Assembly (NCBI GenBank): GCA_041389065.1
Contig: JAWKSM010000001.1
Coordinates: 80,320-144,319 of the forward strand
Reading direction: 5' to 3'
Length of the DNA: 64,000 bases
Origin: Minisyncoccota bacterium
GTDB taxonomy: Bacteria > Patescibacteriota > Minisyncoccia > Phycocordibacterales > CSBR16-119
The translations under genes and the position numbers were made by a program. Below, one piece after another: positions 13,860 through 14,666 of this stretch (the stretch's first letter is position 1; every line of letters begins with the position of its first letter). The notes beneath the pieces are model-generated. The model did not search any database, was not told the origin of the DNA, and saw only the letters and a program-made list of their open reading frames with translations.

Positions 13860-14240
13860 ATTAAACATTTACTTATTATTAAAAAACACGAATAAACAAA
13901 CATGTCTCTTATATAAATTATGTCCTTTATAAAGGACATTTTTCTTATAATCTCCTATTTGTCTTATAGAATTAACTTTTACGTTTGTTGATAAATAATA
14001 CTTATTCAGAAAAGTTGTGTGGATAACTATGTTTATAATGTTAAAAACTTTTGTCTTTTATTGGGTTTTTAAAATAAAATCAAAGAAAGTTAATTTAAAA
14101 ACGTTGAAAAATAAGGCTTTTTTATAATAATGACCTTATTTATGTTATATATGTTTCACGTGAAACATATATAATTGTTTCATCTGAAACATTCGTAGTA
14201 TTATAAAAATAAGGATATTTTGTGTTTCACCTGAAACATT

Positions 14241-14666
14241 ATGAAAAAATTTACTTCAAAAACCCAAAAAATTGGGGAAATAGGAGAGAATTTGGCTTGT
14301 AAAAAGTTATTATCTCTTGGGTTTAAAATTTTAGAAAGAAACTACACCAGAAAGGGTGGGGAGATCGACATTATAGCTAAAAAGGGAAATAAGCTATATT
14401 TTATTGAAGTTAAGAGTGTTTCACGTGAAATACATAAGGATGCCCAGAAAAATACAGATGTTCCACATGAAACAAGAAAATACTACAGGCCAGAGGAAAA
14501 TATGACTTTTAGTAAGTTTAAGAAAATGTCTAGAACTATTGAACTTTATTTATTAGAGAAACATGTTTCCCATGAAACACCTTGGCAGATGGATTTGGCT
14601 TGTGCGTATATTGATTTGAATAAGAAGGTTGGCAGGGTAGAGATATTGGAAAATATTATATTTTAA
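14241..14666 (+). CDS. yraN: YraN family (UPF0102) PD-(D/E)xK-type endonuclease, with an insertion carrying repeated motifs
   Basis: GEIDIIAKKGNKLYFIEVKS core motif; three in-frame copies of the GTTTCnnnTGAAAC palindrome encode VSREI / VPHET / VSHET. Confidence 0.6.
   Translation: MKKFTSKTQKIGEIGENLACKKLLSLGFKILERNYTRKGGEIDIIAKKGNKLYFIEVKSVSREIHKDAQKNTDVPHETRKYYRPEENMTFSKFKKMSRTIELYLLEKHVSHETPWQMDLACAYIDLNKKVGRVEILENIIF

Follow-up and report, generated by a model that had tools for sequence, protein, structure and literature searches.

The 64,000 nucleotides of contig JAWKSM010000001.1 of a Minisyncoccota bacterium analysed here (hereafter the window) contain seven copies of a 16-bp palindrome, packed in 1.3 kb around yraN, a gene for a putative nuclease. 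These palindromes are very probably parS, the centromere-like loading sites of ParB (Spo0J), arranged as a dense origin-proximal cluster. By sequence they are canonical parS, a known kind of element, and the array is unusual in its density, in being embedded in coding sequence and in its wide conservation. From the 5' end of cca, the seven sites extend through the intergenic region, which contains a tRNA, and the leader of yraN into the coding sequence of this gene. This array is tied to the cca-yraN gene pair across a class-level clade and has long been kept inside coding sequence. The host gene yraN and the seven sites are listed below.

14241 to 14666, plus strand: yraN (UPF0102 / PD-(D/E)xK nuclease family; Pfam PF02021, E = 1.3e-16), host of three putative parS sites
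13263 to 13278: parS-like site TGTTTCATAAGAAACA, one mismatch, overlapping the start codon of the minus-strand cca gene and reading M-F-L-M-K-Q
14152 to 14167: putative parS site TGTTTCACGTGAAACA, perfect, centre CG, equal to the published 16-bp consensus
14176 to 14191: putative parS site TGTTTCATCTGAAACA, both arms perfect, centre TC
14223 to 14238: putative parS site TGTTTCACCTGAAACA, both arms perfect, centre CC, 2 nt before the yraN ATG (14241)
14417 to 14432: putative in-frame parS site 1, TGTTTCACGTGAAATA, one mismatch (C15 to T), encoding (S59)V60-S-R-E-I64 directly after the catalytic E-V-K
14459 to 14474: putative in-frame parS site 2, TGTTCCACATGAAACA, one mismatch (T5 to C), encoding V74-P-H-E-T78 in a loop predicted to be disordered
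14564 to 14579: putative in-frame parS site 3, TGTTTCCCATGAAACA, one mismatch (A7 to C), encoding V109-S-H-E-T113 in the loop after helix 90-106

Exact matches to TGTTTCANNTGAAACA are found three times in the window (14152, 14176 and 14223) and in none of 100 dinucleotide-preserving shuffles. When up to two mismatches are allowed, eight sites are present where 1.05 are expected, with seven of the eight inside 13263-14579. The sole match outside the cluster, a two-mismatch site at 42619, compares with the 1.05 expected by chance. A first-pass annotation of this DNA had reported six copies at a density far above chance. The density and the coordinates of all six were confirmed by reading the sequence and by pattern searches, but a seventh copy, the one-mismatch site at 13263, had been overlooked. 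The perfect dyad symmetry described there applies to the three upstream copies and not to the three in-gene copies, which have one mismatch each, and the last upstream copy, placed 3 nt before the ATG, is in fact 2 nt away from it. The in-gene copies do share a single frame, xxT GTT TCA NNT GAA ACA, and encode V-S-R-E-I, V-P-H-E-T and V-S-H-E-T, in agreement with the V-S/P-R/H-E-I/T given earlier. This shared frame is largely forced, since one of the three possible frames reads TGT TTC ANN TGA and runs into a stop codon.

According to the literature, the parS consensus is 'TGTTTCAC-GTGAAACA', parS sites are confined to the region around oriC, and the Noc site NBS differs from parS at two specificity positions (bioRxiv 10.1101/724823). 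The site at 14152 matches this consensus. Of the seven sites, that at 14152 equals the parS inverted repeat TGTTTCACGTGAAACA (tGTTnCAcGTGaAACa), another two match it perfectly in both arms, and the remaining four carry a single mismatch. Among the papers listed for the exact 16-mer TGTTTCACGTGAAACA, the topics are ParB/parS, Noc, origin finding and chromosome organisation. When 393 sites from the window and its relatives are considered, positions G2, T3, T4 and C6 and their partners G11, A13, A14 and C15 are near-invariant, with variation at positions 1/16, 5/12 and 7/10. The Bacillus subtilis parS consensus TGTTNCACGTGAAACA has N at position 5, which is matched by the variation observed here at the same position. 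The specificity bases are of the parS type rather than the NBS type: G2, one of the two bases separating parS from NBS, is conserved in 95-100%, A7 is present in 94% of the upstream sites, with A or T in the coding sites, and A2 combined with C7, as in NBS, does not emerge as a pattern. The centre dinucleotide was left free in the motif search and was not used for site selection; it is C-G in ~69% of the upstream sites, with no such preference in 19 background matches.

The relatives are 80 Paceibacteria loci (Nomurabacteria, Taylorbacteria, Adlerbacteria, Minisyncoccia and others) from a scan of species-representative genomes, with YraN identities of 47-95%, and amount to 1.28 Mb together with the window. 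Sites were counted at up to two mismatches, with the locus zone set from -2500 to +600 of yraN. This zone (0.26 Mb) contains 393 of the 412 sites, and the other 1.02 Mb contain 19, an ~80-fold enrichment. None of these 19 off-locus matches is perfect, and they are scattered in unrelated open reading frames (ORFs). As for parS elsewhere, sites are few and nearly missing from bulk DNA, both in the window and in the 1.28 Mb of related loci. The distribution of the motif, which the first-pass annotation had proposed to check, is therefore locus-specific. A site is present within 200 bp upstream of the yraN ATG in 74/80 loci, and 69/80 have at least one in-gene site.

Several of the individual sites recur as well. 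In most of the 80 relatives, a CACGTG-centred equivalent of the 14152 site precedes yraN by 20-160 bp, the 14176 site is present with the same TC centre in L001-L005 and L024, and a site at -18 to the yraN ATG, as that at 14223, is found in L001-L004, L013, L042, L052 and L056. The closest relatives retain the 13263 site (L001-L003 have matches at ~0.9-1.0 kb upstream of yraN), and its MFLMKQ peptide is found in 6 loci. The 14564 site is retained as V-S-x-E-T in closer relatives and in L024, L033 and L034 and lost in many others. With seven sites at one mismatch or less, the window marks the upper end of the range (median 2).

Inside yraN, selection is evident at the nucleotide level. At site 1 (14417), Val is encoded by GTT in 63/77 sequences (background 34%), Ser by TCN in 67/69 (71%) and Arg by CGT in 26/56 (18%). 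At site 2 (14459), GTT is used for Val in 60/62 (34%, P = 5e-26), CAT for His in 26/27 (57%), CGT for Arg in 15/19 (18%), ACA for Thr in 40/59 (36%) and GAA for Glu in 47/49 (73%). The binomial P values for this codon bias range from 5e-26 to 3e-4 and overstate independence, given the kinship of the sequences. At ~50% protein identity, silent sites should be randomised. Judged from these sequences, selection on the DNA, and not on the peptide, maintains the in-gene copies, because the synonymous codons at the aligned in-gene sites are those which the palindrome needs. An alignment of YraN orthologues had been suggested earlier, and in it the palindrome itself is kept down to synonymous codon choice, not the residues alone. 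The middle residue of the pentapeptide varies freely (R, C, H, Y, P, D, G), as the NN centre of the palindrome would lead one to expect. The two stop-free frames of the palindrome read V-S-x-E-T or x-F-[H/L]-[V/M]-K-[H/Q], and these are the only frames used in yraN, at 75 and 47 sites.

The YraN protein of the window is 100% identical to 'YraN family protein [Candidatus Paceibacterota bacterium]' from a metagenome-assembled genome. The NCBIfam YraN models match it below their curated cut-offs, and a sequence search of the PDB gave no match. In an AlphaFold2 model (mean pLDDT 80.5), site 1 is located at the end of the E-V-K strand, site 2 in a loop with a pLDDT below 50 (residues 65-80) and site 3 in the loop following helix 90-106. 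Relative to Escherichia coli YraN, the loop after E-V-K has ~18-20 additional residues, and Pfam UPF0102 aligns 96 YraN residues to 72 profile positions, which bears out the lengthening of the protein suggested in the first-pass annotation. A recent preprint reports that YraN is a single-stranded DNA (ssDNA) endonuclease and that it acts together with the ComM helicase when the D-loop of natural transformation is resolved (bioRxiv 10.1101/2024.02.06.579203).

Further in-gene sites are seen in the relatives. A fourth one at yraN +58, AGTTTCTC(A/G)TGAAACA, is present in ~45 loci (e.g., L056 10059-10074) and absent in the window. It lies in the other open frame (AAG TTT CTC ATG AAA CAT, K-F-L-(M/V)-K-H) and uses the rare codons AAG (24% background) and CTC (14%). 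In L023 and L077, the YraN loop after E-V-K contains four V-x-x-E-T modules (e.g., VSYET..VTHET..VPHET..VSYET), indicating that the copy number of in-gene parS changes between lineages.

The second gene hosting such sites is the divergent neighbour of yraN:

11801 to 13279, minus strand: cca (CCA-adding enzyme / poly(A) polymerase family; Pfam PolyA_pol and HD), divergent to yraN, with a putative parS site at its 5' end

The divergent cca-yraN pair is found in 70 loci, and a second concentration of sites at -500 to -2500 of yraN corresponds to the cca gene. Inside the cca reading frames, 140 parS-like sites were counted, 127 in the V-S-x-E-T frame and 13 in the other stop-free frame. These cca sites are often located in lineage-specific inserts, e.g., ...TVSGETNRDVTHET... 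in L056 (9150-9420). The CCA-adding enzymes of the relatives carry the in-frame parS modules VTHVT, VSGET and VTHET, some of them in an insert that is absent from the window enzyme, and the 127 sites of the V-S-x-E-T frame are spread across the 70 loci.

The genes that place the cluster with respect to the origin are the following:

20502 to 21848, plus strand: dnaA (Pfam Bac_DnaA, DnaA_C and DnaA_N), an origin marker given as context only
22098 to 23195: dnaN (Pfam)
18650 to 19399, minus strand: yidC (Pfam)
18184 to 18639, minus strand: jag (Pfam)

In addition, rpmH was recognised by eye immediately upstream of dnaA, on the minus strand; a perfect DnaA box is present at 20407, and genes for RNase Y and HU were identified in the window by Pfam. 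The arrangement of rpmH, yidC, jag, dnaA and dnaN is the classical gene order of the origin region. The parS cluster is therefore origin-proximal in this lineage, ~6 kb from dnaA.

Based on established ParABS systems, ParB dimers would recognise each 16-bp palindrome via their helix-turn-helix domains. With CTP bound, ParB would form closed clamps that slide out over the flanking kilobases. The partition complex built in this way would load the SMC condensin at the origin and, where ParA exists, would be pulled apart so that the sister origins separate. The match to the consensus, the clustering, the nearness to the origin in this genome, the conservation in relatives and the selection on nucleotides are shown by the sequences; ParB binding and spreading, as well as any effect on yraN expression, are inferred. 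Sites inside genes would be tolerated only in surface loops. Since the function would reside in the DNA, in-gene sites must use one of the two stop-free frames. Together with the tolerance of loops, this would explain the repeated V-S-x-E-T pentapeptides, their free middle residue and the lengthened YraN loop.

Several observations weigh against the palindromes being parS. With B. subtilis Spo0J and Soj as queries (the Spo0J query having been checked against PDB chains 6sdk and 5noc), phmmer gave no match to ParB/Spo0J, ParA/Soj or another MinD/ParA-type ATPase in the window (64 kb) or in the 10-kb flanks of yraN in the 80 loci (1.34 Mb in all). Regular expressions for ParB and ParA likewise matched nothing in the window or among the related loci (1.28 Mb). 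In the window, the phmmer search extended ~20 kb from dnaA in one direction and ~42 kb in the other, and parAB adjoins the origin in many bacteria. A dnaA gene within 10 kb of yraN is found only in the closest relatives L003-L006, so origin proximity is shown for this lineage only, and the GC skew of the 64-kb window has too much noise for the origin to be located. Two of the three upstream centres are TC and CC instead of CG and the in-gene sites have one mismatch each; affinities may therefore differ. Finally, the three sites stacked over the yraN leader and start codon are denser than segregation alone seems to need, which hints at an added regulatory role. The exactly retained consensus, for its part, argues for a canonical ParB as the protein reading these sites.

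A quite improbable alternative is an operator array of a dedicated dimeric transcription factor for yraN and perhaps cca, e.g., an SOS/LexA-like or competence regulator. Three sites are indeed located between a promoter-like TTGAAA-16-AATAAT (14104-14131) and the ATG, the last ending 2 nt before the start codon, and YraN, as a natural-transformation nuclease (see the preprint cited above), would be a plausible regulated gene. However, such promoter-like matches (7 versus 6.9 expected from shuffles) are uninformative in AT-rich DNA, and the sequence is exactly the parS consensus, centre included. The sites are also kept at synonymous positions deep in two coding regions, with about half of all sites inside the yraN and cca frames, and no second locus with sites, such as an unlinked promoter, was seen in the 1.28 Mb of window and relatives. 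The first-pass annotation had offered an operator array for a dimeric regulator as one of three options. What stands of this is a binding-site array for a dimeric protein, presumably ParB, with a helix-turn-helix recognising each 16-bp palindrome; canonical parS had gone unrecognised there, and the primary role would be segregation and SMC loading rather than regulation of yraN. In Streptococcus pneumoniae, ParB at parS represses the nearby competence operon comCDE (PMC4488948), and regulation may thus be a secondary effect. Regulation of yraN by bound ParB may be such a side effect; the sites extend into two coding regions, with no second locus seen in the 1.28 Mb. A LexA/SOS-type box was considered first, the TGTTC-N4-GAACA motif of Verrucomicrobia resembling such a box, and was dropped once the exact 16-mer was seen to equal the parS consensus.

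The idea that a small palindromic element colonised the gene, which had also been raised, would make the copies a selfish repeat (REP, MITE or Rickettsia palindromic element-like) inserted in frame into yraN and cca. The varying copy number in the YraN loop, with four V-x-x-E-T modules in L023 and L077, and lineage-specific cca inserts with two sites (e.g., VSGET...VTHET in L056) would fit such a repeat. Its copies are not dispersed, however, but enriched at one locus, the unit is only 16 bp without a flanking element, sites 1 and 2 stay in the same alignment columns down to ~50% identity, and the sequence equals a known protein-binding site, all of which makes a selfish origin highly improbable. 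It is hardly conceivable that the copies act as RNA elements, i.e. as hairpins or copy-to-copy duplexes in the yraN mRNA which control translation or stability. Each copy is self-complementary and the ATG-proximal one is situated between AAGGA (14212-14216) and the start codon, but one-sided changes dominate: positions 5/12 show 108 single changes and 27 complementary doubles versus 17 doubles expected, and G-U accounts for only 61 of the 366 non-Watson-Crick pairs, the remaining 305 not being G-U. Moreover, the same sites are present in the oppositely transcribed cca and in untranscribed-looking DNA, and the Rfam matches are to tRNAs only. There is just as little reason to believe that V-S-x-E-T serves this YraN subfamily as a functional protein repeat, or that the nuclease itself targets the palindrome, with the DNA palindrome as a by-product. 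While the pentapeptides are conserved at the protein level and the first directly follows the catalytic E-V-K, the synonymous codon choice is far from background, perfect copies lie in non-coding DNA, the same peptide modules are found in the unrelated enzyme cca, and site 2 is located in a low-confidence loop with a free middle residue. YraN is reported as acting on ssDNA in the preprint. Nothing in the present analysis supports the earlier suggestion of a YraN recognition or cleavage site. YraN presumably lacks a palindromic recognition site.

As parS sites, the palindromes can be compared to known systems. Those of B. subtilis (Lin & Grossman 1998; TGTTNCACGTGAAACA) are the same 16-bp palindrome, origin-proximal and degenerate at position 5 as here. 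In B. subtilis, ~8-10 parS are spread over the origin-proximal fifth of the chromosome, whereas here seven are found in 1.3 kb, and its in-gene parS is hosted by parB (spo0J), whereas the hosts here are yraN and cca, with no parAB operon nearby. The N-V-P-R-E-T stretch of Spo0J (residues 218-223) is presumably encoded by that parS and would be the same frame solution as V-S-x-E-T here; residues 21-218 of the Spo0J sequence used are exact in 6sdk, and for the stretch itself there is only the score, 128.7 bits, of a match between residues 216-282 and 5noc_A. A statement of parS within spo0J was not found in a literature search.

Clustered parS arrays near oriC, nucleating one partition complex, are known from Caulobacter, Myxococcus, Corynebacterium and mycobacteria. 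Elsewhere, such arrays usually flank parAB and span several to tens of kb; the array described here is tighter, largely embedded in coding sequence and firmly associated with a cca-tRNA-yraN cassette throughout a class-level clade. According to PMC10419367, Pseudomonas aeruginosa has four parS sites (parS1-4) overlapping oriC, which are, as here, grouped near-consensus sites. The parS3/parS4 promoters of P. aeruginosa (PMC5521831) and comCDE of S. pneumoniae are similar to the present case in that parS is near a competence- or recombination-related gene, where bound or spread ParB can lower expression. Unlike in these cases, the sites here are directly on the yraN leader and start codon, where an effect on expression is a possibility. 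NBS (TATTTCCCGGGAAATA) is a related 16-bp palindrome bound by a ParB paralogue. Its copies are dispersed along the chromosome, apart from the origin cluster, in contrast to the clustered sites here with their conserved G2. Rickettsia palindromic elements are dispersed, in-frame selfish insertions of 100-150 bp. They are comparable in that a nucleic-acid repeat becomes an extra peptide in surface loops of unrelated proteins, but the units here have a length of 16 bp, are functional binding sites and stay within a single locus. No published description of parS or ParB in Patescibacteria/Paceibacteria was found in literature searches.

Upstream of the parS array, the window contains a perfect DnaA box TTATCCACA (minus strand) at 14018-14026 and another at 13986-13994. 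A perfect box is present upstream of the array in 72/81 loci, at 130-290 bp upstream of yraN in L001-L080, and 75 of the 131 perfect DnaA boxes of the 1.28 Mb fall in that 500-bp bin upstream of yraN. At one mismatch or less, there are 1.6 boxes per 400 bp there versus 0.15 in the background, mostly in one orientation. These boxes could be a DnaA-regulated promoter or part of a real origin. In the loci, conserved blocks span -240 to -85 relative to yraN (13921-13938 and 14018-14140 in the window), in the order TGTCCTTTA (-237), CTGTGGATAACTATGT (-187), TGTTTATAAAGGACA (-163), TGTCTTTTA (-139), AAATAAGGAT (-105), TAAAAGACA (-85) and parS (-50). Two pairs of inverted repeats are found among them, TGTCCTTTA/TAAAGGACA and TGTCTTTTA/TAAAAGACA. 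In the window, the two members of the former pair merge into a perfect palindrome of 18 bp directly behind tRNA-Gly (13921-13938), flagged as terminator-like by a scan. The dnaA leader (20400-20445) repeats two of the motifs upstream of yraN, TAGTTATCCACA and TGTTTATAAAG, suggesting that the same proteins may read both regions. In E. coli K-12 (L081 5395-6400), diaA, which encodes a DnaA initiator-associating protein, directly follows yraN. This is a curious parallel to the DnaA box beside yraN in Paceibacteria, and it may be a coincidence.

A far-reaching and rather unlikely interpretation is that Paceibacteria carry a fixed 'origin-centromere cassette' (cca, tRNA, DnaA box, parS array and yraN), in which the centromere would be deliberately kept in the coding loops of two enzymes, V-S-x-E-T modules would be gained and lost like binding sites, and ParB loading would have a double duty. 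Under this doubtful scenario, ParB loading would either gate the expression of the transformation D-loop nuclease YraN by segregation state or, jointly with the conserved DnaA box 130-290 bp upstream, mark the true replication origin where dnaA is far away. In a more radical version, these reduced genomes would have neither ParA nor ParB, and another protein would read the sites.

Read as parS, the array gives direct access, at the level of sequence, to chromosome segregation and the position of the origin in Paceibacteria, a huge and almost uncultured group. The conserved cca-tRNA-DnaA box-parS-yraN cassette could mark the origin and centromere when metagenome-assembled genomes are closed and oriented. 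The array also illustrates, in a clean natural case, how codes can overlap: a site for DNA binding has long been maintained inside two genes, where embedded parS fixes synonymous codons and adds V-S-x-E-T modules to protein loops. Caution is needed, as such repeats should not be read as protein motifs or new regulators.

Regarding the other features of the window, no rRNA was found with Rfam. ARAGORN predicts a tRNA at 1254-1327 (minus strand) beside tRNA-Glu, with an undetermined identity and the odd anticodon call 'ca'; Rfam matches it as a tRNA at 61.8 bits. Three segments, 10000-12000, 32000-34000 and 40000-42000, have 45-53% G+C compared to ~34% for the genome, and may be horizontally acquired. 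The first of these contains an NYN-domain gene.

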